Shown in pieces: positions 1-11,228 of a stretch of DNA of 11,228 nucleotides. Below the pieces are notes generated by a model, which did no database searches, was not told the origin of the DNA, and was given only the letters and a program-made list of their open reading frames with translations. Origin of the DNA: Pseudobdellovibrionaceae bacterium (GTDB taxonomy: Bacteria > Bdellovibrionota > Bdellovibrionia > Bdellovibrionales > Bdellovibrionaceae); NCBI GenBank assembly GCA_044359815.1, contig JBIKLL010000084.1, positions 1 to 11,228 on the forward strand. The letters run 5' to 3'. Position numbers and translations under genes: made by a program. Positions within the stretch are counted from its first letter, which is position 1. Every line of letters begins with the position of its first letter.

Positions 1-530
1 TTCATTAAATTTTCTACTTTTTCTTTCAACAGCATAACGGCCTCGTTGGCATTGGAGCCACCAGCAAATCGAGTCGGTATCCCAGAAAACCATTTTACGA
101 AATCATAGATTTCCTGTGATTTAATGCTCTTTATTGCTTCTGCGATCTGCGGATTTTTGACTACATCAAAGGTACCAAATTTCAGTGAATCATATTCCGA
201 GTCCACCTTGAACCGTTTAATCAGCTCGCTGAACGCGTTTTCAGTTTCATCGCGGGCAATTTTAAAACCTCCACACCTGCCGTTGGCGTGTTGGTACATT
301 GAAATTATCTGCAATTGCTCAGGTGTGGCTCTGACTATGGAAACACCTGTTGCCGTATTGGTTAAAATCGTTTCCATCTGCAAGGCCTGAGCGACCTCTG
401 TATCCAGCATAACGGGTACTGACTCTGCTTTTAGAGTCCATGGATATTGGCTATGAGCACTGGCCACTGAATTGATTGCCAAGATCAAACCAACCGTAAG
501 TCCTTTTATTAGTCGTTGCAAAAAGATCAT
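1..530 (-). CDS. Secreted M28-family (bacterial leucyl) aminopeptidase-like precursor, N-terminal part; runs off the left edge
   Basis: Not in the ORF track; translated by hand. ATG at 530 with a G-run RBS (535-540), open to position 1: MIFLQRLIKGLTVGLILAINSVASA-HSQY...QHANGRCGGF...NPQIAEAIKSIKSQEIYDFVKWFSGIPTRF... Signal peptide, an H-x3-RCGGF propeptide motif and a segment resembling the start of the mature Vibrio-type aminopeptidase (…ITGTISSLESFTNRF). Metal ligands lie outside the window. Confidence 0.75.
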   Translation of the reverse strand, partial: MIFLQRLIKGLTVGLILAINSVASAHSQYPWTLKAESVPVMLDTEVAQALQMETILTNTATGVSIVRATPEQLQIISMYQHANGRCGGFKIARDETENAFSELIKRFKVDSEYDSLKFGTFDVVKNPQIAEAIKSIKSQEIYDFVKWFSGIPTRFAGGSNANEAVMLLKEKVENLM

Positions 531-698
531 TATTCCCCCCTTGGAATGTATTAATTATTGTCTGTCTTGAAAATTTTGTGATCAACGGATTTCAGATTTA
601 TTTAAACTGCCCACTTGCGTTAATATTCGACCTACACGAAATCTCTCATCAGAAAATTTTAGTGTCCTCAGGTTAATTAAATAAAAAAAGGATCATAA

Positions 699-2099
699 AT
701 GAAATTGAAAGTTACAAAAATCAGCCCTGTTTTAACCCATTTAGTTCTGGCCATTTGGTCCTTAAACAGCGGCGCCAACGATTTTGTATCCCCCAATGGA
801 GTTAAAGAAATCTGCACGGCTCCAGCAAAATTGACTGCGGCAATGATTGAGTCTGGTGACTTCAAAAAAGGCGACTTAGCTACCGAGGAAAAGCTCTGCA
901 AAGTGGATTTTTATAACGGTTTTGGCGTTTGTCCAAAATATTCCTCCACCAACCCAGGATTGCTAATCAGTCATTTGCCAGAAGGGATGACGGCAAATGT
1001 TTTTAATTCTGAACATTGTCACCAAGACGATCCTGAGCAAAAAAATATCGCAAAATTTAAGCAAAGCATAACCTGTTCCTACACACCTGCCGGATTAGCA
1101 GCTTATCAGCTTTCCAGAATTTTAGGAGGCGCAGGCCGTGTACCAGTAACTGTCTATCGAACAATGGATGCCAAAGAACATCTGAGCAAAGTTGAACAAG
1201 CTCTGCTGGAGCTGGGAAATTCGAAAGATGCAATTCACGCAGCTTGGTATTCTCAAAAAAAATCCCACACAAAAAAACCTGCAAAAATGTTTTTATCTGA
1301 AGACCTGATTTATGGATTTTTAGCTGACAATATCAAGGGTGAAGAGATTTACACCGAAGTCAGCGGTAAAGGCTCTTACAGTAATCGCTACAAAAGATTC
1401 ACAGAACAACCTGCCTTCAACCGACTGACTAGCGCCGAACCGGCTGAGGCCCTATCGACCAGCAAAGACCTGAAAGACTTAATCCCGATGATAGTTCAAA
1501 TGAAAGACGTCAGTGACATGATTTTAATGGACACGCTGTTGTCCCAGGATGATCGCATCGGAAATATCCATTTCAAATTTCGATGGTACTATTTGGAAAA
1601 TGGGACCTTAAAAGAAGAAAAATCAAAAGCAAAAAAAGCCAGCCGTAAAAAAACAGCAAATTATAAAAATAATTTGTTTGAAGCTTATGTTCCCACAGAA
1701 GAATTGTTGCTATACCAAGATCAGAAGCAAGGCTTTTTGGTAAAAGAAATGATTCTGAAGGACAATGATTGCGCAGTTGACGTGGACAAAAGATCTAATG
1801 AAATGAAACGCACTGGCGCCTTAGAGAAAATCAGACACATGAGCTTTGAAACCTACAGAAAATTTATGAATCTAAGCAAGTATGTTGAGGCCAACAATGA
1901 AACGGTCAAGCAGCATTTTATCAACGAACTAAAATTTAGAGCTAAGGACTTCGAGGGTGACAGCAAAAGCTTCTTGCGAAATCTAAAATACGCTACCAAG
2001 GTTTTGTCAGACAATTGCCGCAGTGGTTTTTTAAAACTGGATCTGGACAAAGAAAACTACCTACCTGGCATGACAAAAACCAATCCATCCTGCGATTAA
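699..2099 (+). CDS. Secreted 466-aa protein with FAM20C/Four-jointed-like atypical kinase motifs
   Basis: Long ORF, RBS AAAGGA just upstream, N-terminal signal-like segment. Motifs AKFK(121), LAAYQLSRILGGAGRVPVTVYR, DMILMDTLLSQDDRIGN(289) and MILKDND(357) occur in kinase order. The CDS is certain; the fold is inferred by eye. Confidence 0.7.
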   Translation: MKLKVTKISPVLTHLVLAIWSLNSGANDFVSPNGVKEICTAPAKLTAAMIESGDFKKGDLATEEKLCKVDFYNGFGVCPKYSSTNPGLLISHLPEGMTANVFNSEHCHQDDPEQKNIAKFKQSITCSYTPAGLAAYQLSRILGGAGRVPVTVYRTMDAKEHLSKVEQALLELGNSKDAIHAAWYSQKKSHTKKPAKMFLSEDLIYGFLADNIKGEEIYTEVSGKGSYSNRYKRFTEQPAFNRLTSAEPAEALSTSKDLKDLIPMIVQMKDVSDMILMDTLLSQDDRIGNIHFKFRWYYLENGTLKEEKSKAKKASRKKTANYKNNLFEAYVPTEELLLYQDQKQGFLVKEMILKDNDCAVDVDKRSNEMKRTGALEKIRHMSFETYRKFMNLSKYVEANNETVKQHFINELKFRAKDFEGDSKSFLRNLKYATKVLSDNCRSGFLKLDLDKENYLPGMTKTNPSCD

Positions 2100-2117
2100 T
2101 CTCTACTAAGCCTTGGG

Positions 2118-2266
2118 GCACAGAAAACAGATTTTAAATTATAAAAATACAATTTAAATAAAAAAGGTCCTCTGCGGAGGCGGGGGCTTGCCCGAGCAGA
2201 GAAGCACGAGCTGTGACCTTTTTTAATTAAATTGTATTTTTATAATTTAAAATCTGTTTTCTGTGC
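2118..2266. repeat. Long inverted repeat: 52-bp arms (2118-2169 / 2215-2266, one mismatch) around a 45-bp GC-rich spacer
   Basis: Left arm GCACAGAAAACAGATTTTAAATTATAAAAATACAATTTAAATAAAAAAGGTC. The reverse complement of the right arm is identical except TTAATT vs TTAAAT. It lies between convergent stop codons. Confidence 0.95.
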
Positions 2267-2279
2267 TGAATAGTTGAGA

Positions 2280-2999
2280 TTAAGGGCAGATCAGGTTTTT
2301 TTCATTGCTGGTAATTTGATATTGAGGGTAGGGTTTGAATTCCAAAATTCTTTTTTTTACTGAGTCGTAACCCGAAGAATTGCCGTCCGTATTGACTGTC
2401 CAATATTTTAAAGCCTGCTGCGGACTCCAGCCACAAAACTGCTGAAGCGCCATAGCTGCTATCATTCCGGATGCATGCCAGCCGTTCCAACAATGTGCAT
2501 ACAGAGGACCTGGCCGATTGCCTTTGATATGTCTAAACACAGTGTTTATGAATTTTTCTTGATTGCTTGAATCAAAAGCCGTGGATTGATTGTACTTTAA
2601 ATTCTGATCGTCGTTTTCAAAGTCCCGGCAATCTGTGTTGGCATTAGCGCTAGAAAAATTGTCCCTATACAAGTAAAGAGCTTCTGAGAATCCATTTTTG
2701 CAAAGGTTTTTGAGTGCATGATTTTGCAATGGATTTTGATTAGGCCGCTTGTTGATGCGGTTGTATTTATTGTTAGCCCCTCCCCGATAATATATGCCAT
2801 GCAACACCACGCGGAAATTGCGAACCCCGTAAAGTCCGTCATACCCGTCGCCTCTATTGTCTACAAGTTTGTCGTAGGGATTTTTAAGATTGTACATTTG
2901 CTTATAAATATCAACTTGTCGCTTCAGATCAAATTCCACTGCGAAAGCTTCTACACAAAAACCAAAGACCGCAGCCATCAGTAACAATCGATTTATCAT
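2280..2999 (-). CDS. Secreted protein-tyrosine/dual-specificity phosphatase-fold protein with atypical P-loop
   Basis: Likely ATG at 2999 (the track uses TTG at 3005). Signal peptide MINRLLLMAAVFGFCVEAFA. RNFRVV..GIYYRGG matches the typical N-terminal NFxxV..lYRsg of DSP/PTP-like proteins. GPLYAHCWNGWHASG followed by a helix and GWSPQQAL matches PvlvHCxxGxxRtG...GWs.e.Al. Confidence 0.75.
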   Translation of the reverse strand: MINRLLLMAAVFGFCVEAFAVEFDLKRQVDIYKQMYNLKNPYDKLVDNRGDGYDGLYGVRNFRVVLHGIYYRGGANNKYNRINKRPNQNPLQNHALKNLCKNGFSEALYLYRDNFSSANANTDCRDFENDDQNLKYNQSTAFDSSNQEKFINTVFRHIKGNRPGPLYAHCWNGWHASGMIAAMALQQFCGWSPQQALKYWTVNTDGNSSGYDSVKKRILEFKPYPQYQITSNEKNLICP

Positions 3000-3133
3000 A
3001 TGCAAATTAAAACTTAAAAATGCATGATTAGTAATTTCAAAACTGTGGCGATTGCAGATTTAAGACCTTGGTCCTGATAGGCCATTTTTAGATTTTAGTT
3101 TTTTTATCTGAATTGAACTTATAAGATCTGAGG

Positions 3134-3997
3134 ATGAAAAAAAATAATCAAAACGTAAAAACATTCACTGAAATCATCCTCGTCCTGCTGGGAATTTTAT
3201 CGGCAACTATTGGCTTAAAAGGCTTTTTGCTGCCCAATGGCTTTTACGATGGCGGGGCCATGGGAATAGCCTTATTGCTGGATTATTTTGTACAAGGCGA
3301 TTTGGCTCTATATATCATACTGATCAACATCCCCTTTGTGTTAATCGGCATCAAACAAATATCATGGGCCTTTGCTATCAGAAGTGCCGCAGCAATATTT
3401 ATGCTGGCAATGAGTGTGCATTTTTTGGAAATTCCGACTTTCACTCATGATAAAATTTTAATTTCTATTTTTGGCGGAGTGTTTTTAGGAATGGGAATCG
3501 GTTTATCCATGCGTGGAGGTTCTGTGATTGATGGCACAGAGGTTCTGGCAGTTTCTGTGAGCCGCAGGTCAAGCTTGAGCGTCGGAGACTTTATTGCTTT
3601 GTTTAACCTGGGATTGTTTTTGATAGTCGCTTTTTGGGTTAATTTGGAAACTGCCATGTATTCGATGCTGACATATTTTGCCGCTTCAAAAAGCGTGGAT
3701 TTTTTGATCAGCGGTATCGAAGAATACATAGGAGTCACAGTCATATCTGCTGATCACGAGAAAATCAGACAGCTTTTTGTGAATGATTTATTGCGTGGAG
3801 TGACTGTTTACAAAATTGAAGGAGGTTTTAACAAAGCCGAAGGCGATGAACGCAAGGCCCTGTTTTGTGCGGTGACTCGTTTAGAAGTTTCAACTCTAAT
3901 CAATGAGGTTGAAAAAATAGACCCTGATGCCTTTATCATTCAGTACGCTCTTAAAGACACTAGAGGCGGTATGATTAAAAAGCGCCCCTTACACTGA
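3134..3997 (+). CDS. YitT family membrane protein (DUF161 + C-terminal DUF2179)
   Basis: 287 aa with multiple TM helices. Motifs FLLPNGFYDGGAMGIA, LINIPF, GGVFLGMGIGLSMRGGSVIDGTEVLA, RGVTVY..EGGF and EVEKIDPDAFI. Confidence 0.92.
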   Translation: MKKNNQNVKTFTEIILVLLGILSATIGLKGFLLPNGFYDGGAMGIALLLDYFVQGDLALYIILINIPFVLIGIKQISWAFAIRSAAAIFMLAMSVHFLEIPTFTHDKILISIFGGVFLGMGIGLSMRGGSVIDGTEVLAVSVSRRSSLSVGDFIALFNLGLFLIVAFWVNLETAMYSMLTYFAASKSVDFLISGIEEYIGVTVISADHEKIRQLFVNDLLRGVTVYKIEGGFNKAEGDERKALFCAVTRLEVSTLINEVEKIDPDAFIIQYALKDTRGGMIKKRPLH

Positions 3998-4030
3998 AAA
4001 AAAAGGCCCCGTGATAACCGGGGCCTTTTT
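3997..4030. terminator. Bidirectional intrinsic terminator
   Basis: A8-GGCCCCG-tgataac-CGGGGCC-T5 between convergent genes. Confidence 0.9.
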
Positions 4031-4052
4031 GGATTAACATTTTGAATCTGAA

Positions 4053-5252
4053 TTAGGGCGTAAAAGCCGTTGTTGGCAAATCTGTTGTATCAGTGAATGA
4101 AATCACATCAGCATCAGTCAAACCAGCTGTTCCCCATTGAGCTGCACCTACAGTTGCCGCGTAAGCTGTAAAATAGTTTCCCATTACAGTATCGCTACCG
4201 GCCACATCTGCTCCATTCAGTCTTAATGAACTGGCTGTGCAGCGTGAGCCGTCTGTAGTGATAGACCCATCAGCAGACAGAACACATGCTTCGTAACTAT
4301 TTGTATTTGAGAATTGGGTATCTGCTCTCATGCTCAGTGAAAAAGCATCACCAGTATTTGGCTTACCCGCCAATATATATCTGTTACCACTGGTCACAGC
4401 CGTCGTGTTGCCTCTGTATGACAATACCATACCGATATCGTTGGTTTCGTCATAATAAATCCTGCCAATTTCAACAGAACCCGTCGTTGAAACTTTAGGA
4501 GCCCAAAAAGCCTCGGCTCGCGTCACTCCAGTAGATTTGTTGTATTCTGCAACTGTTCTTGAATACCCTTCATCGCTGTCTTCTGCCGTCGCAATCCGTA
4601 GGACGGTGTCGTCATTTTTAACCATGTAGGTTTGATCAAATATATCGAATGAAAATACTTTGTCGTAATTGGTTGAACCCGAAGCCACTGTCATTGTCAT
4701 TGAAGCATCAGTGGTGATGTTTGATGTATCAATACCGCAACCACTGGTCATTGCCGCTTTAACTGCTGCTGTAAAAGTGATAGTGTAAGACCCATTGTCG
4801 ATATATCCAAAGCTACTGACTGTTATGCCTTCAGATTTTGAACCGACGCCGATTGCACAAAATATTTTAAATGCATTATACATTCTTCCAAAGATATTTA
4901 CATTACCACCACCAGAACTAACAGCATCGGGATTTAACTGAATACCCATATAATCCTGAAATGAAATCATGCTGCCACCTGAAGCTGTTGGATCTTGAAT
5001 CCCAGGTGAGTTTGTTGTCCACGCCGTAGAAAAACTTGCCAGCGGTCTGATGCCGGGAACAACTCTGTTTGAAAAAGTTGTTGTGTCCAAAACACCTGTC
5101 ACTCCTGAAATCTTTGAATTCAAAGTATTTACAGTGCTGGTGATAGTGTTTGATGACAAGCTATCAGAAGCTGCGTCTGTGCTGGATTTCGAACAACTGA
5201 TTAAGGCTGTTGCCAAAGCAGTAACAATCAATGCATTTCTTATGTTTAACAT
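4053..5252 (-). CDS. Ser/Thr-rich lipoprotein of unknown function (399 aa)
   Basis: ATG at 5252 with RBS AAGGGG. Lipobox LIS-C (Cys20) followed by an S/T-rich linker; beta-strand-like body with four further Cys. Confidence 0.85.
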   Translation of the reverse strand: MLNIRNALIVTALATALISCSKSSTDAASDSLSSNTITSTVNTLNSKISGVTGVLDTTTFSNRVVPGIRPLASFSTAWTTNSPGIQDPTASGGSMISFQDYMGIQLNPDAVSSGGGNVNIFGRMYNAFKIFCAIGVGSKSEGITVSSFGYIDNGSYTITFTAAVKAAMTSGCGIDTSNITTDASMTMTVASGSTNYDKVFSFDIFDQTYMVKNDDTVLRIATAEDSDEGYSRTVAEYNKSTGVTRAEAFWAPKVSTTGSVEIGRIYYDETNDIGMVLSYRGNTTAVTSGNRYILAGKPNTGDAFSLSMRADTQFSNTNSYEACVLSADGSITTDGSRCTASSLRLNGADVAGSDTVMGNYFTAYAATVGAAQWGTAGLTDADVISFTDTTDLPTTAFTP

Positions 5253-5399
5253 TTACAATCCCCTTGTTGGTTTAGTTTCATTGCTATGCTAACAAGCACA
5301 GAGTTCGGCAGAAAAGTAAAAATGAGTCCAGCCCGACATAGGGCCTGCATCAAAATATTTCTGAAAAATAATCTTTAGACCAAAGGGGGATTTTGGCTG

Positions 5400-5433
5400 A
5401 TCCAATTTGACCCGTCGTTGTGTCATAAATTTT
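5400..5433. promoter_or_regulatory. Putative activator (enhancer) site pair upstream of the csbD-like gene
   Basis: ATCCA-ATT-TGACC (5400-5412) and TGTCA-TAA-ATTTT (5421-5433), 21 bp apart. 5403-5413 is the exact reverse complement of GGGTCAAATTG at 7992-8002. Confidence 0.5.
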
Positions 5434-5504
5434 AAAATAGAAGCCCCATTTGTTGAAGACCACCCTTCAAACCCACCAAAACAGCTCAAGACCAAAAGCC
5501 GATG

Positions 5505-5520
5505 TGGTCATTTATTTGCA
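5505..5520 (+). promoter_or_regulatory. Putative sigma54 (-24/-12) promoter
   Basis: TGGTCATTTATTTGCA has GG-N10-GC spacing with TTGCA at -12, about 28 bp upstream of ATG 5548. Confidence 0.65.
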
Positions 5521-5619
5521 AAGCACTCAATCAACAAGGGAGTAAAAATGAAAAATGAAACTGGAAATCATCAGGACACGCAGGCTCAAAACAAATCAGC
5601 CAATCATAAGGAGGCATTT

Positions 5620-5862
5620 ATGGACTGGAAACAAATCGAAAGCAACTGGGACAACGTCAAAGGCAAAGTGAAGGAAAAATGGACAAAATTCACTACCGAA
5701 GATCTGAGCACAATTAAAGGCAACAGAGATCTTCTTGTGACTCAGCTTTTGAAAACTTACGATTTCGGCAAAGAAGAGGCCGAAAAACAGGTGAATGATT
5801 TTAAAATGATGATCAATTCAAACAGCAAAGACAATTTGAAACCCATCGAACACAAACTTTAA
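5620..5862 (+). CDS. csbD: CsbD/YjbJ family general stress protein
   Basis: MDWKQIESNWDNVKGKVKEKWTKFTTEDLSTIKGNRDLLVTQLLKTYDFGKEEAEKQVNDF matches the CsbD/YjbJ pattern. RBS AAGGAGG (5608-5614) precedes ATG 5620. There is an alternative in-frame ATG at 5548 with RBS AAGGGAG. Confidence 0.88.
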   Translation: MDWKQIESNWDNVKGKVKEKWTKFTTEDLSTIKGNRDLLVTQLLKTYDFGKEEAEKQVNDFKMMINSNSKDNLKPIEHKL

Positions 5863-5891
5863 AAACTAACCCCTCGTAAAAAAATAATTGC

Positions 5892-5923
5892 GGCCACTCG
5901 AACAGAGTGGCCTGAGGGTTTTT
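5892..5923 (+). terminator. Stem-loop after the csbD-like gene (terminator or mRNA-stabilising hairpin)
   Basis: GGCCACTC-gaaca-GAGTGGCC, followed after 6 nt by T5. CCCTC(5871-5875)/GAGGG(5914-5918) could add an outer stem. Confidence 0.55.
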
Positions 5924-5961
5924 CAAGTTTCTGAACCAACTGAAACAAAGGAAACTAACCA

Positions 5962-6186
5962 ATGAAAACCAAACATAAAAAACATCAGACCAGTCTTTCA
6001 AACACTTTAAGGCAATGGCCAGATTCGTTTGCCAATATTAGCAACCACAGAATCAGTCATGCTATCTATAAAATTGAAGATCGTTTATTGATGCTACGAT
6101 TCAGAATCATGAGTCTGGCACAATCAGCTGGCACTGAGGCCAAAAATTTTAGCAAACGTGCAAAAAACCAGTTTAGTTTATACTAA
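5962..6186 (+). CDS. Small basic hypothetical protein (74 aa)
   Basis: RBS AAGGA about 9 nt upstream of the ATG. It fills the gap and ends inside a bidirectional hairpin. Confidence 0.55.
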   Translation: MKTKHKKHQTSLSNTLRQWPDSFANISNHRISHAIYKIEDRLLMLRFRIMSLAQSAGTEAKNFSKRAKNQFSLY

Positions 6187-6196
6187 ACTGGTTTTT
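6163..6196. terminator. Bidirectional terminator-like hairpin with a perfect 15-bp stem
   Basis: AAAAACCAGTTTAGT-ttat-ACTAAACTGGTTTTT between two convergent small ORFs. Confidence 0.75.
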
Positions 6197-6199
6197 CTT

Positions 6200-6424
6200 C
6201 TATCCCGATTTCCTGCTGTGAAATCTCCAACTTTCTGACAGCCCAGACTCACCAAAGGAATCCAAATCCTTCGAGCTCATCAGATACTCTATAGACTTAA
6301 TTACTTCGGACACATCGGCCACTATTTCTTGAAATTTCTCATCCACATTAGCAAGGCCCCTATCCTTGTAAAAAACCAAACCCGGATTCAATTGTATAAA
6401 AGTTGCTTCTTTAAACTGTGCCAT
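6200..6424 (-). CDS. Small hypothetical protein (74 aa)
   Basis: RBS AAAGGGA before ATG 6424. Protein-like composition, divergent from the activator gene, ending at the hairpin. Confidence 0.6.
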   Translation of the reverse strand: MAQFKEATFIQLNPGLVFYKDRGLANVDEKFQEIVADVSEVIKSIEYLMSSKDLDSFGESGLSESWRFHSRKSG

Positions 6425-6518
6425 AATTTCCCTTTCTAAATTAGTGGTTGTAATTAGTACTGTTGCAATCTTCAGACTGAGTGCTGAGCCATCAGATTCG
6501 AGTCGGCAATTCGATGCA

Positions 6519-6552
6519 GGTCACTTTGACAAATACATGAACCGTTATGACC
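6519..6552. promoter_or_regulatory. Putative activator-binding site pair in the divergent region upstream of the NtrC-family gene
   Basis: GGTCA-CTT-TGACA (6519-6531) and AACCG-TTA-TGACC (6540-6552), 21 bp apart. Confidence 0.55.
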
Positions 6553-6631
6553 TGATTAACAGAGTATTAACTTGTAACAGATCTGTGCCCATGAGACCGG
6601 TGACTCACAAACAATGCAGAAAGAAGTTAGT

Positions 6632-7990
6632 ATGAAAATAATTTTCGTGGATGACTCCACTGATGACTTAAGGATTTTTTCTGTATTTGCTAAAAACAAA
6701 AACATATCTCATATTTGTTTTTCTGACCCCCTGTTGGCGATTGAACATATTAAACAAAACCAATCCGAAAAGTTTTTGATTGTATGCGACGTTTTCATGC
6801 CTCAAATGAACGGATTTGATTTTCTGGATGCCATCCAAAAATTGCTGTCACACTCCCCGATTATTTTCACCTCAGGAGCCGCTGAAATTGATATTCCCAT
6901 AAGAGCCCTACGCAGTGGGGCTTTAGACTATTTGCCAAAGCCAATAGGCATTTCCGAATTAGAAACCAGAATTTACAGGGCGATAAAATTGCTGAGCTCT
7001 GCCGAAATCTCGAATGCCATTGGCATCCCAGAAAAACTGCAACCCATGAATTCAAAATATTCCTATGTAATTGGCAAAAATGAAGACAGCCAAAAACTGA
7101 TGGCATTTATTGAAAGGCTTTCTCCCTTTGACTCTTCAGTCTTTATCACGGGGGAAAGCGGCGTGGGTAAAGAAAACATCGCCCGACTGATTCACCAAAA
7201 AAGCCCCAGGGGAAATCGGGATTTCACTGCGATAAACTGCGCCTCCATTCCTGAAAATTTGGTTGAATCAGAACTGTTCGGACATGTTAAAGGCGCTTTT
7301 ACGAGTGCCGATCGTGATAACCCAGGTCTGTTTGTTAATGCCCATATGGGAACTTTATTTTTGGATGAGGTTGCAGAGTTGTCATTGTCAGTACAGGCAA
7401 AACTGTTAAGGGTCTTGCAAGAAATGGAAGTCAGACCCGTGGGAGGAAAAAAATCTGTACCTGTTGATGTCAGAGTTATTTGCGCCACGCACAGGAATAT
7501 TCATCAAATGATCCAAGACGAAGCTTTCAGGAGCGACTTATTTTACCGTCTTAACGTGATACCTATAAACATAAAACCTCTGCGCGAACGCCCCGAGGAC
7601 CTGAAACAGTTGATCAGTCATTTTATGCAGAAAATGTCATCCAGGTTCAAAATTCAAAAATCCTTAAGCGATCAAGCCCTGCAGTTTCTAAAACAGTATC
7701 ATTACCCAGGTAATGTGCGAGAACTGCAAAATCTTATCGAACGAGCTTTTATATTAAGTACGAACAATTCAATCGAAGTCAGCGACTTTAATCTGCAACC
7801 CTCAACCCCAATAGCTTCGAGCACATTTTTCAAATTGGGACCAATAATGCCCACACTAGAACAAGTCGAAATGGCTTACATCAAAGAAGTCTTGGATCAC
7901 AATCAGTCCAAAAAAAAGGCGGCAGAAATATTAGGTATTGGACGAAAAACTCTGTTTCGAAAAGAGCTCACAGCAAAGCAATCAGTATAG
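6632..7990 (+). CDS. Sigma54-dependent NtrC/AtoC/ZraR-family response regulator (REC-AAA+-Fis HTH)
   Basis: REC: IIFVDD, CDVFMP, YLPKP. AAA+: Walker A GESGVGKE, ESELFGHVKGAFTSA, Walker B LFLDEV, QAKLLRVLQE, FRSDLFYRLNV, YPGNVREL. HTH: KKKAAEILGIGRKTLFRK. Start is 6632 (MKIIFVDD) or 6614. Confidence 0.96.
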   Translation: MKIIFVDDSTDDLRIFSVFAKNKNISHICFSDPLLAIEHIKQNQSEKFLIVCDVFMPQMNGFDFLDAIQKLLSHSPIIFTSGAAEIDIPIRALRSGALDYLPKPIGISELETRIYRAIKLLSSAEISNAIGIPEKLQPMNSKYSYVIGKNEDSQKLMAFIERLSPFDSSVFITGESGVGKENIARLIHQKSPRGNRDFTAINCASIPENLVESELFGHVKGAFTSADRDNPGLFVNAHMGTLFLDEVAELSLSVQAKLLRVLQEMEVRPVGGKKSVPVDVRVICATHRNIHQMIQDEAFRSDLFYRLNVIPINIKPLRERPEDLKQLISHFMQKMSSRFKIQKSLSDQALQFLKQYHYPGNVRELQNLIERAFILSTNNSIEVSDFNLQPSTPIASSTFFKLGPIMPTLEQVEMAYIKEVLDHNQSKKKAAEILGIGRKTLFRKELTAKQSV

Positions 7991-7992
7991 TG

Positions 7993-8005
7993 GGTCAAAT
8001 TGACA
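7993..8005. promoter_or_regulatory. Putative enhancer palindrome
   Basis: GGTCA-AAT-TGACA starts 3 bp after the activator stop codon and 73 bp upstream of a sigma54-like promoter. A weaker TGATC half-site follows at 8021. Confidence 0.6.
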
Positions 8006-8065
8006 TCTATCAGATTTTTTTGATCCAAGACTGCCAGCTGTCATCAATAGAGAGTGGTTTCATAA

Positions 8066-8081
8066 TGGCACGTTTGTTGTA
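8066..8081 (+). promoter_or_regulatory. Putative sigma54 promoter for the membrane protein-kinase-DHp operon
   Basis: TGGCACGTTTGTTGTA has a perfect -24 box (TGGCACG) and correct spacing, with TTGT instead of TTGC at -12. Confidence 0.65.
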
Positions 8082-8127
8082 CCTACAGTCTTTTGAAAGC
8101 AAACAAAAAAAACAAAAGCGAGGGGAT

Positions 8128-8469
8128 ATGAAAACAATTTTTAGCATTATAGTAACAGTTGCGATGATCTTTCTGTCGATCACAGTTTTTCTGTGGTTAC
8201 CATTTGTCTTGGTTGGGTTGATAGTTTATGGAATTCCATTATATCTTTTGGCATTCCTGCCTGGTCTTGCTCCCTACCCTACCATCGCAAAAACAAATCA
8301 AAGGCCGGCTGTCCCGATCAGACATCTGAAATTCATAGATACAACAAGAAAAGAATTGCGACTGATTCCTGGATCAAATTTATCCTACATACGAGTTCCG
8401 TTGATACAAAATCAAATGACAAAGCATCCGCATCTGACAAAAAGATTTAATCCTAAGATTGTCCAGTGA
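8128..8469 (+). CDS. Small membrane protein (113 aa; N-terminal hydrophobic hairpin, basic C-terminal tail)
   Basis: RBS GAGGGG (8120-8125) and ATG 8128. MKTIFSIIVTVAMIFLSITVFLWLPFVLVGLIVYGIPLYLLAFLPG gives about 2 TM segments. The stop is 1 nt before the kinase ATG. Confidence 0.75.
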   Translation: MKTIFSIIVTVAMIFLSITVFLWLPFVLVGLIVYGIPLYLLAFLPGLAPYPTIAKTNQRPAVPIRHLKFIDTTRKELRLIPGSNLSYIRVPLIQNQMTKHPHLTKRFNPKIVQ

Positions 8470-8470
8470 C

Positions 8471-10627
8471 ATGAAGATTAAAAGTCCATTAAAGGCCGTC
8501 AGAAAAAAACTTATGCTTCCGGAAGACCTGGTCAGTTTGGTTTTTGAGAATCTGCCTTCTATGGTCACAATTAAAAATACAAGAACTCTGAAATACGTTT
8601 ACATTAACAAAGTTGGCGAGGGGATTATGGGCGTCACGCAAAAGTTTATTGTAGGTAAGCGAGAACCTGATGTGTTTTCGCACCAAAACGAAAATGAGGT
8701 TTTAAAAAATGAACGGGAAGTTATTAAACAAAACTTAGTTGTGGATTATCCCACGGCTTTATTGGTAACACCTACAGGCATAAAATGTTTTAAAAAAAGA
8801 GCCATTCCATTCACTTCGAAACAAGATGGCGCTACGTATCTGATAGAAGTTTACGAAGACATGACCGAGTTTGTTTTACCAACCAAAAGAAAATCTTCAG
8901 CGAAAAGGCAAAGCCAAGAAATTCTGGATAAACTTAAAAACGCCAGGCGCGTGAATTTTATGAACGATGCAACAGCCGCCCTGAATGGCACTCTGGATAC
9001 AGAAGATCTGATTGAAGATTTTGCAGCCGTTGTTGTCAAAGACATCGCTGATTGGTGCTGTGTGGATTTGTTTGATACCACAGGTAATTCAATTAAAAGA
9101 CAAATTTCAAAACACAAGCACAACGCATTGACAATCGAGGCCACCGTTTGGAACAGTTTGGAGCATTCATCAAAACTAAATCAAAATACAATTTCAGATT
9201 TAATACTGCAGAAAAAACCCTATCTGTACCAACTGTCCCATATCACCAAAGACACCAAGATTTATCGAGTCACTGACAAAAACAACGATGCCTCATTTAC
9301 GGCTCAGTCAGCAATGATCATTCCCTTGGTCAGTTACAAAAAAATCATTGGCTTGATAGCTCTGCTGTCGACAAGTAAAAACAATATCTACTCGGAGCTG
9401 GACTTGCTGTTTGCCGTCGAAATTGCAAAACGAGTTTCCTTAGCCATTGAAAACGCCAATTTATTTACCAGGGCTAATGAATCCAATAGAACCAAAAGTT
9501 CTTTCTTAGCAAATATGAGCCATGAAATCAGAACCCCACTGGGTGCTATGATTGGTTTTGCGGATTTAGCCCTTGGTGATGGCAATCTGAGCGATACCCA
9601 AAGGGACTACATTTTAAAGGTGATAAGAAACGGAAAACAAGTTTTAAATCTGGTTGATGACATATTGGATCTGTCAAAAATTGAATCAGACTTTATGCAC
9701 ATTGAAAAAATATCATTTCAATTCTCTAAAATTATTGAAGACATCAAGTCGATGCTAGAAATCCGAGCCAAAGACAAAAATATAAAACTGGAATTGGTTT
9801 TGGAGCAGGGATTGACAGATTCAAAACTGATCACAGATCCCAATAGGCTTAGGCAGATTCTGATAAATGTTATTGGAAATGCAGTTAAATTTACCGAGAC
9901 CGGAATTGTTCGTGTGGAATTCAAACTGGTCAAAGAAAATACCTTAAACTATTTACAAGCAGATGTCACAGACACTGGGATTGGAATAGCTGAACACCAA
10001 CAGAAAAATCTGTTCAATGCCTTTTTGCAATTGGACCCTTCTAACAACAGGAGATTTGGCGGAACTGGTTTGGGGTTATTCTTATCCCGAAAGCTGGCAA
10101 AATTGTTGGGTGGAGATATTATCTTGGTCAAATCTGATGAAACTAATGGATCACACTTTAGAGCCTCGATTCAAGTTGAAATTGTCGAGGCCTCCATGGA
10201 CCAAAAATCTGAACAAGATTTAGAGTCAGAGACACCGAAATCCAGCAACCCGGTTTTTGTAGGATCAGTCTTGATCGTAGATGATTCTGAAGACAATTTA
10301 ACTTTGCTGGGACATTATCTAAAAAACCTTAACATCCACAGCGAAAGCGTTAATTCGGGTAAAGAAGCCATTGCACGAGCCCTTCGGCATCCTTACGATT
10401 TGATTTTACTCGACATTCAAATGCCTGATCTGGATGGGTACGAGGTCGTGCAATTACTAAGACTTAAAAATTACACAAAACCTGTTGTTGCACTCACTGC
10501 CCACGCTATGAAAGGTGACCGTAAAAAATGCCTGGAAGCTGGATTCACAGATTATTTATCAAAGCCAATTGATAAAATTCAATTAACAAAAATCCTTACC
10601 CTTTTTCTGAAGCAAAAGGATAAGTAA
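8471..10627 (+). CDS. Cytoplasmic hybrid sensor histidine kinase (PAS-GAF-HisKA-HATPase-REC)
   Basis: PAS-like VFENLPSMVTIKN..YVYINK. GAF: IADWCCVDL...SAMIIPL...RVSLAIENA. H-box FLANMSHEIRTPL, N-box NVIGNAVKFT, G1 DTGIGI, G2 GGTGLGL. REC: LIVDD, LLDIQMP, LTA, SKP. No TM segment and no Hpt. Confidence 0.96.
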   Translation: MKIKSPLKAVRKKLMLPEDLVSLVFENLPSMVTIKNTRTLKYVYINKVGEGIMGVTQKFIVGKREPDVFSHQNENEVLKNEREVIKQNLVVDYPTALLVTPTGIKCFKKRAIPFTSKQDGATYLIEVYEDMTEFVLPTKRKSSAKRQSQEILDKLKNARRVNFMNDATAALNGTLDTEDLIEDFAAVVVKDIADWCCVDLFDTTGNSIKRQISKHKHNALTIEATVWNSLEHSSKLNQNTISDLILQKKPYLYQLSHITKDTKIYRVTDKNNDASFTAQSAMIIPLVSYKKIIGLIALLSTSKNNIYSELDLLFAVEIAKRVSLAIENANLFTRANESNRTKSSFLANMSHEIRTPLGAMIGFADLALGDGNLSDTQRDYILKVIRNGKQVLNLVDDILDLSKIESDFMHIEKISFQFSKIIEDIKSMLEIRAKDKNIKLELVLEQGLTDSKLITDPNRLRQILINVIGNAVKFTETGIVRVEFKLVKENTLNYLQADVTDTGIGIAEHQQKNLFNAFLQLDPSNNRRFGGTGLGLFLSRKLAKLLGGDIILVKSDETNGSHFRASIQVEIVEASMDQKSEQDLESETPKSSNPVFVGSVLIVDDSEDNLTLLGHYLKNLNIHSESVNSGKEAIARALRHPYDLILLDIQMPDLDGYEVVQLLRLKNYTKPVVALTAHAMKGDRKKCLEAGFTDYLSKPIDKIQLTKILTLFLKQKDK

Positions 10628-10630
10628 GTC

Positions 10631-10828
10631 ATGACCACTGCAGACAACCACAGCAAACTAATACATAACCTCAGAAATTCAATCGGAGCCATGCAGTTAG
10701 CGACAGATCTGCTGCTGAAATTTCCACAGATGAGCCCCGAAGATAAATCTGAAACAATCATCATCATCAACCGACAATTAAAAAAACTGACAGAACTTAT
10801 CAAAGCTGTCACAGAAAATCAGAACTAG
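10631..10828 (+). CDS. Stand-alone HisKA/DHp-like mini-protein (65 aa)
   Basis: Starts 3 nt after the kinase stop. LIHNLRNSIGAMQLATDLL...IINRQLKKLTELIKAV matches the two-helix HisKA pattern (lsHElRnPL.aI....elL ... I.r...rl..li.dl). Confidence 0.72.
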   Translation: MTTADNHSKLIHNLRNSIGAMQLATDLLLKFPQMSPEDKSETIIIINRQLKKLTELIKAVTENQN

Positions 10829-10836
10829 CACCAGCT

Positions 10837-10871
10837 GGTCTTAGTGACCCTGATGATTTAATTTCTGACCC
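10837..10871. promoter_or_regulatory. Putative enhancer site pair
   Basis: GGTCT-TAG-TGACC (10837-10849) and TTAAT-TTC-TGACC (10858-10870), 21 bp apart. The first site is 72 bp upstream of a sigma54-like promoter. Confidence 0.55.
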
Positions 10872-10908
10872 GAATAATTTTTCAGATCATCGAAATCAGA
10901 ACAAACCC

Positions 10909-10924
10909 TGGCATTTAAAGTGCA
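10909..10924 (+). promoter_or_regulatory. Putative sigma54 promoter
   Basis: TGGCATTTAAAGTGCA: TGGCA at -24, TGCA at -12, GG-N10-GC spacing. Confidence 0.68.
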
Positions 10925-11003
10925 GGGACTAAAATAAAACTACAAATCAATGTTCCGAAATAAATCCGAACAAAAGATTTGGATAAATAAAAAGGAGAGC
11001 GAA

Positions 11004-11228
11004 ATGATCACTCAACGACTTAAACTAGGAACTGGGGCTTTAGTGATGCTATTGTCGATTCTGGCTTCCGCGGAAGATCTGGCCAATCCTTCGGATGTTC
11101 CCTATGATTCAGCCTTTGAATCTGTTTTTCAATTGGATGACAGCTTCCCTGACAGTCAGGAGCAATTGGTAGACGACTACCAGTCCTATGATGTTTCCGC
11201 GGAATTCAGCGAAGATCCCACGGACTTT
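11004..11228 (+). CDS. Secreted acidic protein, N-terminal part; runs off the right edge
   Basis: Not in the ORF track. RBS AAAGGAG, ATG 11004, open to the end: MITQRLKLGTGALVMLLSILASA-EDLANPSDVPYDSAFESVFQLDDSFPDSQEQLVDDYQSYDVSAEFSEDPTDF. AxA signal peptidase site. Confidence 0.8.
   Translation, partial: MITQRLKLGTGALVMLLSILASAEDLANPSDVPYDSAFESVFQLDDSFPDSQEQLVDDYQSYDVSAEFSEDPTDF

Follow-up and report, generated by a model that had tools for sequence, protein, structure and literature searches.

In the 11,228-nt window analysed here (the whole stretch of contig JBIKLL010000084.1, positions 1 to 11,228 of the forward strand, assembly GCA_044359815.1, Pseudobdellovibrionaceae bacterium), the gene at 699..2099, which we call K, very probably encodes an exported, disulfide-locked, metal-dependent phosphotransferase of the FAM20-type fold. 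It is convergent with a second gene, P, whose product has the fold of a Siw14-like phosphatase and lacks the catalytic-loop Arg. K appears to be a working enzyme because its catalytic set is conserved, and it is expected to act outside the cytoplasm because it carries an export signal and disulfides; as the slot in which adenine would be expected is basic, adenine is probably not bound there in the usual way. As to the phosphate donor, we tentatively prefer inorganic polyphosphate. The features of K on which the argument is built are the following.

699..2099, + strand: kinase gene K, predicted 466-aa exported FAM20-like protein-kinase-fold enzyme of an unannotated family
699..776, + strand: probable signal peptide, about residues 1-26 (hydrophobicity rule; low predicted local distance difference test score, pLDDT, at the N-terminus)
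930..959, + strand: C78-P-K80-x-x-S83-T84-N85-P86-G87 in the beta1-beta2 loop, putative equivalent of the glycine-rich loop
1053..1076, + strand: beta3 residues K119 (adenine-cap position) and K121 (canonical Lys), and C126
1530..1571, + strand: catalytic loop D278...Q283-x-D285-R286-x-G-N289-x-H291
1758..1772, + strand: K354-D355-N356-D357-C358, with the metal-binding Asp; K354 is at the normally hydrophobic preceding position

K represents a widespread family of exported proteins

The initial annotation of this DNA, made from the letters alone, described a secreted protein with FAM20C/Four-jointed-type kinase motifs. All the motif positions it gave are exact in the 466-aa translation: AKFK at 118-121, AGLAAYQLSRILG at 131-143, RVPVTVYR at 147-154, and further on D278, D285-R286-I-G-N289 and L353-K-D355-N356. 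Its expectation that such a protein would be annotated as hypothetical also agrees with what we found, as K has no match in Pfam (query at E<=1), NCBIfam or PADLOC, and its named relatives, mostly from Bdellovibrio, are labelled "hypothetical" or "periplasmic". The proposed signal-like N-terminus is plausible by a hydrophobicity rule, which is the only basis used here: the best 11-residue mean is 1.86, and the rule is passed by 115 of 120 close homologues and 124 of 136 distant ones, vs 11 of 50 cytoplasmic controls. K would be a soluble protein of ~50 kDa.

Of 6,955 candidates from a word-seeded search, 269 were relatives at E<=0.001, and a profile search of 1.84 billion representatives gave 565 clusters at 50% identity, 274 of them at E<=1e-30. 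Records with a K relative come from Bdellovibrionota, Alpha-, Beta- and Gammaproteobacteria, Deltaproteobacteria, Myxococcota and Acidobacteriota; the Atlas added Verrucomicrobiota clusters and, in its ranking by features, had a bacterial Fam20C-domain cluster in eighth place (0.92). The genome from which the window comes has one copy of K, whose nearest neighbours on a FastTree tree (used for the spread of neighbouring genes only) are Bdellovibrio-family records, and orthologues exist in cultured Bdellovibrio, e.g. the named record Bdt_0782. Fusions join K to SH3b, to DUF2252 (P0123, L021) or to a second K.

Conservation was assessed in two alignments. The close one has 120 rows (the query and 119 of the 120 listed word-seeded matches, one fragment being left out), and the distant one has 132 rows at 24-50% identity to the query (the query and 131 of the 150 listed profile matches, fragments and two ~820-aa fusions being left out). 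The residues that the initial annotation singled out for such a check, K121, D285, N289 and D355, proved invariant or nearly so, and the motifs are therefore no product of chance. In the close rows K121, D278, D285, R286, N289, D355 and N356 are all invariant; in the distant rows D278, Q283, D285, R286 and N289 are present in 132/132, D355 in 131/132 and K121 in 130/132.

In the literature within our reach, outside which subscription journals and supplements largely lie, neither the K family nor its Arg-less partner is described; the supplements of kinase surveys (PMC9758233; bioRxiv 10.64898/2026.09.18.752743) or KINtaro may list K. In the available part of a Fam20 review (PMC7948968), bacteria are mentioned only in a reference title.

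The modelled fold of K is nearest to FAM20 kinases

The kinase-like fold suggested by the initial annotation is supported by structure prediction. An AlphaFold2 model built from 120 sequences has a mean pLDDT of 93.4 and a predicted template modelling score (pTM) of 0.91, and its top Foldseek match is zebrafish Fam20C (E 1.8e-5). In a structure search of 48,161 chains the best match was Hydra Fam20 (Z 18.1, root-mean-square deviation (rmsd) 4.1 Å, 274 residues aligned), followed by Fam20C (Z 17.4), type II phosphatidylinositol 4-kinase alpha (PI4KII-alpha, 15.6), CtkA (11.3), HipT (10.4), CotH (10.1) and actin-fragmin kinase (9.6), and this ranking was repeated in a second structure search. 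The FAM20 structures, i.e. Hydra Fam20 (5xom/5xoo), zebrafish Fam20C (5yh0), human Fam20C (5yh3), the C. elegans protein (4kqa/4kqb) and the pseudokinase Fam20A (5wrs), match K at Z 18.1-14.5 and an rmsd of about 4 Å over 274-289 residues, with 12-19% identity. The long insert between N289 and D355 that had been noticed from the sequence is real, and is modelled as ordered strands with pLDDT >90.

The type II PI 4-kinases (4pla, 4yc4; Z 15.6-15.8, rmsd 4.1-4.3 Å, ~250 aligned) trail FAM20 by just 2-3 Z units and share the DR..N and DN motifs with K, but K differs from them in being exported and disulfide-bonded, in its polar adenine slot and in having no PF00454 match. CotH, like K, is an extracytoplasmic atypical kinase found beside VTC and DUF4956 genes; however, it reaches only Z 10.1-10.4, K has no PF08757 match, and the CotH proteins of the VTC cassettes mostly have, by eye, an aromatic residue before the metal Asp, unlike K. 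CtkA, HipA/HipT and actin-fragmin kinase belong to the same branch of the kinase fold (Z 8-11), yet they are cytoplasmic or host-acting ATP kinases with clearly lower scores. Sequence searches of solved structures with the K protein and two profiles gave chance-level matches only. Four-jointed was not among the matches listed in the fold searches.

A co-varying Cys pair and no glutamate after beta3

According to the initial annotation, the alphaC Glu is replaced by Gly in K. The absence of Glu holds for the whole family, as no row out of 132 has Glu at any of columns 122-136, and therefore both the alphaC Glu and the FAM20 loop Glu are missing family-wide. The Gly itself is not general: Gly132 is peculiar to the window's protein, position 132 being Ile in 77/132 rows, with Gly not among the six commonest residues. 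The loop Glu is needed by FAM20C and is lost in Fam20A, where Gln258 stands for Glu213 of ceFam20 (PMC5413348).

K has eight Cys, which co-vary as four pairs, in agreement with the paired Cys and oxidising compartment proposed earlier. Three of the pairs are C39-C67 (1 discordant row out of 132), C78-C107 (2) and C440-C465 (1). The fourth, C126-C358, is present in 107 rows, wholly absent from 25 and discordant in none, the 132 rows being related and thus non-independent. As C126 is five residues past K121 and C358 three past D355, this pair links both halves of the active site, and does so without recourse to the model. The C126-C358 disulfide could replace the Lys-Glu ion pair, and D357 (Asp in 130 rows, Glu in 2) is a candidate for the missing acid. 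From the fold match and this covariation, K121, D285 and D355 are likely to cluster in space; the geometry of the pocket is read here from sequence register, not from measured coordinates.

The predicted adenine slot of K is basic or polar

The adenine of Fam20A is sandwiched by Met235 and Phe343 from above and by Pro279, Leu344 and Leu429 from below; ceFam20 has a similar pocket, and the residue immediately ahead of the metal-binding Asp430 is Leu429 (PMC5413348). Residue 354 of K, directly before D355, was placed from that numbering, whereas the register of K119 takes K285 as the beta3 Lys of FAM20C and that of the hinge was set by eye. On this register, the hydrophobic sandwich (Met235, Phe343, Leu344, Leu429 type) is not found in K. 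Residue 119, two before the beta3 Lys, is Lys in 127/132 rows and bulky hydrophobic in 1/132; residue 354 is Lys or Arg in 104/132 and bulky hydrophobic in 6/132; residue 291 (N289+2) is His, Ala or Asp and bulky in 1/132; and hinge N211 is bulky in 6/132, with K, E or D at position 210. K80 is conserved in 131/132. A motif-anchored count on 111 locus-derived kinases, a set overlapping the 132 rows, agrees with a basic slot. Since it would be lined by K119, K354, H291 and N211, with K80 nearby, the slot most likely holds phosphates.

In PI3K, PI4KII, HipA and CtkA the positions matching 119 and 354 are hydrophobic. A bacterial open reading frame (ORF) with a Pfam Fam20C-like match (L100) has, by eye, Val and Ile there; the K family profile aligned with one bacterial Fam20C-like protein over just 18 columns (probability 4.9), and therefore no residue register could be drawn from profile comparison. 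Two unannotated sister subfamilies, both exported, FAM20-like and found beside P genes, differ from each other at these positions. The sister kinase of L129/L130 (hhalign probability 94.6) has Leu in place of K354 and Phe in place of H291 and, in one lineage, lies two genes from a TLC ATP/ADP transporter. The other (L095, L151, L160, L162, L178 and L228 7827-8981), keeps K80 and K119 and has Arg before the Asp, but has lost K121.

Taken together, K resembles a FAM20-type kinase in fold and location and falls outside that family on three counts: it does not match the Pfam model, and it lacks both the essential Glu and, by register, the hydrophobic adenine sandwich. The resemblance comprises export, four disulfides (as judged from the hydrophobicity rule and Cys covariation) and the D-x6-DR and DN motifs, in which the catalytic Asp and the metal Asp (D478 type) correspond by motif order and fold to D285 and D355. 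On the other side, PF06702 matches neither the query (E<=1) nor the scanned K homologues nor anything in the window's genome, and K differs from FAM20 in having no beta3-alpha3 Glu, in Lys at the Met235 and Leu429 positions, in its DR-x-x-N loop and its C126-C358 clamp, in being bacterial and in being paired with an Arg-less phosphatase-fold partner. The initial assignment to the secretory-pathway kinases is thus sustained by fold, catalytic residues, export and disulfides, but not by the Glu or the adenine slot.

The partner gene P encodes an exported phosphatase-fold protein without the P-loop arginine

2280..2999, - strand: partner gene P, 239-aa exported protein of the protein tyrosine/dual-specificity phosphatase (PTP/DSP) fold, Siw14-like, without the P-loop Arg; convergent with K
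2466..2495, - strand: P-loop HCWNGWHASG, with the catalytic Cys and the Siw14-type His kept and Arg replaced by Ala

The model of P (pLDDT 92) matches Siw14 at Z 14.6 (rmsd 3.0 Å, 155 aligned), a match with which VHZ (Z 14.1) and TpbA (Z 13.8) tie. P thus shares with Siw14/PFA-DSP the PTP/DSP fold and the HC-x-x-G-x-H loop, C172 and H177 each being present in 135/135 family rows, but unlike these phosphatases it is exported, has four further conserved Cys and lacks the Arg of CX5R. This residue is Ala in 116 and Ser in 19 of 135 rows, and none of 131 profile-found homologues has Arg. The Y_phosphatase2 model was matched, below its cut-off, by 30 of 135 rows. Of the other invariant Arg residues, R65 (135/135) or R74 (134/135) could substitute for the lost one. 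The Siw14 loop reads HCxRGKHRT, and fission-yeast Siw14 is an exopolyphosphatase, hydrolysing polyphosphate (PMC10653929); a PTP-like domain that, like P, retains Cys and has lost Arg is known from the PTEN-like domain of auxilin (PMC3507883). Ten long forms of P carry fused OmpA peptidoglycan-binding domains; in a single record (P0394) CotH, P and LysM are joined, possibly through two genes merged by error. Elsewhere in the window's genome (C68 9678-10232), an exported PTP/DSP-like protein has an intact Cys-x5-Arg loop and is possibly an active eraser.

K and P are linked, but not obligatorily. Among 41 relatives from 39 genera, K was found in 10 and a strong P match in 8, all of them K-positive (one weak match was set aside). 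Among 301 Bdellovibrionota genomes, K is present in 49, P in 34 and both in 28, within 1.5 kb of each other in 21; for these counts one weak K match and eight genomes with weak P only were dropped, and kin are non-independent. Of 80 K-centred loci, 25 contain P, which may be convergent with K, divergent from it or in tandem with it; these loci come from several phyla and are spread across the K tree, and K-P operons occur in Bradyrhizobium, Methylococcales, Acidobacteriota and Deltaproteobacteria records. The idea of P as an obligatory neighbour was rejected, since only 23 of 80 P-centred loci (9 of 26 with long flanks) contain K, and two of the 23 are weak or spurious; in one K-negative genome (G282), P lies beside a sister kinase.

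K is repeatedly joined to a polyphosphate-polymerase cassette

A second association of K is with a cassette that comprises DUF4956, an HlyD-like adaptor, a TolC-like protein and a VTC polyphosphate-polymerase domain. In Bdellovibrionota it occurs in 32 of 49 K genomes vs 27 of 252 others (15 of 32 vs 27 of 248 without the largest genus). K lies less than 5 kb from VTC in 18 of the 32 genomes, 15 of the 18 belonging to one genus, and the main Bdellovibrio paralogue of K is convergent with the cassette. Four loci (L184-L187) were chosen because their coordinates already showed K-VTC adjacency: in L186 and L187 a divergent K paralogue, co-oriented with the cassette, overlaps the start of DUF4956, and L184 and L185, from two other families, have the co-oriented orders P-K-VTC-DUF4956 or VTC-metallophosphatase-K. 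On the FastTree tree, K-VTC adjacency is two or three separate joins. In a gammaproteobacterium (L083), DUF4956 adjoins K. A gene for an exported VTC/CYTH-like protein is located directly upstream of DUF2252-K or K-P in L024 (2636-3973) and L127 (2833-4200); its proteins have no Pfam match and align with VTC at an hhalign E of 3e-5 and probability 72, the reversed control giving 0.15. CotH occupies the cassette in 8 of 40 VTC loci (among 60 proteins chosen for scanning), and a set of cotH, polyphosphate-polymerase and DUF4956 genes has been described beside pel genes (PMC7112168).

Other genes also recur beside K. DUF2252, which has a permuted kinase fold (PMC9758233; bioRxiv 10.64898/2026.09.18.752743) and is merely listed in the available parts of PMC13700237 and PMC13118837, occurs at 15 of 80 K loci, and 10 of the 80 contain a second K. 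DUF2252 as an obligatory partner of K was rejected, being absent from the window's genome and common in K-negative genomes (16 of 40 relatives matched). A calcineurin-like metallophosphoesterase gene lies beside K in L014, L184-L187, L226 and L227. In L004 (473-1498) and 12 other loci, the stop of a gene for an exported 340-510-aa family abuts the start of K; this family has no Pfam match and no similarity to K, VTC, DUF2252 or DUF4956.

Exported proteins of ~1,100 aa directly follow VTC/DUF4956 in L205 (8052-11549), L207 (7212-10526) and L208 (7666-10992), and a related ORF is present in the window's genome (C90 3910-5982). By eye they have kinase-like motifs (K-x-K on a presumed beta3, His before the metal Asp); they gave no Pfam match and no significant alignment to K.

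Polyphosphate or ATP as the phosphate donor

Extracytoplasmic phosphorylation in bacteria is hardly described, and the source of its phosphate donor is an open question. Polyphosphate is in our opinion the best single reading of K because of its Siw14-like partner and its repeated joins to the polyphosphate-polymerase cassette, though we hold it tentatively, as it stands barely ahead of ATP. K would be led out by its signal peptide and would fold with four disulfides. C126-C358 would then tie the beta3-alphaC loop to the D355 motif and stand in for the Lys-Glu ion pair, with D357 as the putative acid. D285 would serve as catalytic base, and N289 and D355 would bind the metal, as their places in the fold suggest. 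K would take phosphate from inorganic polyphosphate, or from some other phosphoanhydride that is not a nucleotide, and pass it perhaps to a protein or glycan of the cell envelope, as the fusions to cell-wall-binding domains suggest. P might act as a reader or slow eraser, binding either the polymer or the product of phosphorylation. In Bdellovibrionota, the VTC-DUF4956-adaptor-TolC-like cassette would be the likely supply route. A complete ATP-independent system, in which a polyphosphate kinase is fed by this duct and read by the Arg-less Siw14-like protein, is a more doubtful proposition than the use of polyphosphate as such.

Several observations weigh against polyphosphate. No kinase of this fold is known to us to use polyphosphate, and polymerase activity of bacterial VTC-domain proteins is only presumed. 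VTC (Pfam) is found in none of 15 K-positive genomes outside Bdellovibrionota and DUF4956 in 3 of 10, while 17 of the 49 Bdellovibrionota K genomes have no VTC. In the window's own genome (91% complete), an intact cassette lies on another contig (C124), with CotH on C104. Inherited synteny explains much of the adjacency, because 15 of the 18 cases come from one genus and are mostly convergent. CotH is described as a protein kinase, and because it fills the cassette in eight loci, the cassette needs no polyphosphate-using kinase. Within the slot, the VTC-linked kinases of L184 and L185 have Asn or Thr instead of Lys ahead of the metal Asp, and the register of K119 with Met235 depends on the number that we take the beta3 Lys of FAM20C to have (K285). 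Finally, FAM20C uses a second phosphate-binding Lys, Lys271 (PMC5413348), and thus K119 or K80 may be a relocated ATP ligand. By sequence register, K has no conserved Lys at 87-92 on beta2, K80, K119 and K121 being the conserved ones.

The strongest competitor, unlikely on its own but only slightly less likely than polyphosphate, is that K depends on ATP and is secreted to phosphorylate proteins or glycans in the manner of FAM20C/FAM20B. In this reading K80 and K119 are relocated phosphate lysines with their aliphatic chains on adenine, and P is a pseudophosphatase reading the phosphorylated product. The top fold matches, Hydra Fam20 and Fam20C, are ATP kinases, all catalytic residues are kept, two lysines are used by FAM20C itself, the K-positive genomes without VTC outside Bdellovibrionota would be accounted for, and the K-SH3b and P-OmpA/LysM fusions fit an envelope substrate. 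On the other hand, Lys would stand on both faces of the adenine slot and the ion-pair Glu is absent throughout. The periplasm contains little ATP, and no ATP carrier recurs among the neighbours of K loci.

A flipped nucleotide is improbable. K would in this case hold the phosphates in its adenine slot and transfer AMP or another nucleoside monophosphate, and a basic slot would indeed suit a flipped triphosphate, but a nucleoside triphosphate would still be required outside the cell. SelO, which transfers AMP from flipped ATP, has no catalytic Asp, in contrast to the invariant D285 of K, and is not among the 50 listed fold matches. Still, Fam20A demonstrates that the FAM20 fold tolerates inverted ATP (PMC5413348).

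There is a somewhat smaller chance that K is instead a pseudokinase which, locked by disulfides, binds phosphate polymers or nucleotides and acts with the pseudophosphatase as a non-catalytic sensor or scaffold. The Glu whose loss inactivates Fam20A has no counterpart in K, P lacks its Arg as auxilin does, and one sister subfamily of K has lost K121; however, the near-complete conservation of D278, Q283, D285, R286, N289 and D355 at 24-50% identity is the pattern of a working enzyme. That K is a predation effector using ATP inside the prey is very unlikely, as K, although enriched in Bdellovibrionota (up to 3-4 matches per genome), is found in only 49 of their 301 genomes and forms operons with P in the other four groups named above.

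Should polyphosphate prove to be the donor, this FAM20C relative from bacteria would bring a new chemistry to the kinase fold, and a purpose would be found for the widespread VTC/DUF4956 cassette. Even if the donor is ATP, K stands for an unannotated family of 565 clusters, nearest in fold to FAM20 and accompanied in different phyla by exported pseudophosphatases of a new class.

Other features of the window

3-530, - strand: incomplete gene for an exported protein (N-terminal part), truncated at the contig end; no Pfam/NCBIfam match
2118..2266, no strand assigned: long hairpin between the convergent K and P; 52-nt arms, 98% complementary
4053-5252, - strand: 399-aa Ser/Thr-rich lipoprotein-like ORF; no Pfam/NCBIfam match
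3134-3997, 5407-5862, 6614-10627: ordinary neighbours by Pfam, namely a YitT membrane protein, a CsbD-like protein, a sigma-54 response regulator and a PAS/GAF hybrid histidine kinase

The four ordinary neighbours are not recurrent beside K, and the product of 3-530 presumably resembles secreted leucyl aminopeptidases. A promoter and terminator scan stayed at chance level. The hairpin is not specific to the K-P pair because it is one of 32 copies of a genome-wide repeat, to which Rfam gave no match. Its arms remain paired while diverging, for which we have no explanation: within each copy they are self-complementary (41-68 nt; no more than 2 mismatches in 29 of the 32 copies), yet between copies they are only ~58% identical. 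The repeat is similar to repetitive extragenic palindromic (REP) elements, with a conserved GC-rich core of ~56 nt flanked by the AT-rich arms.

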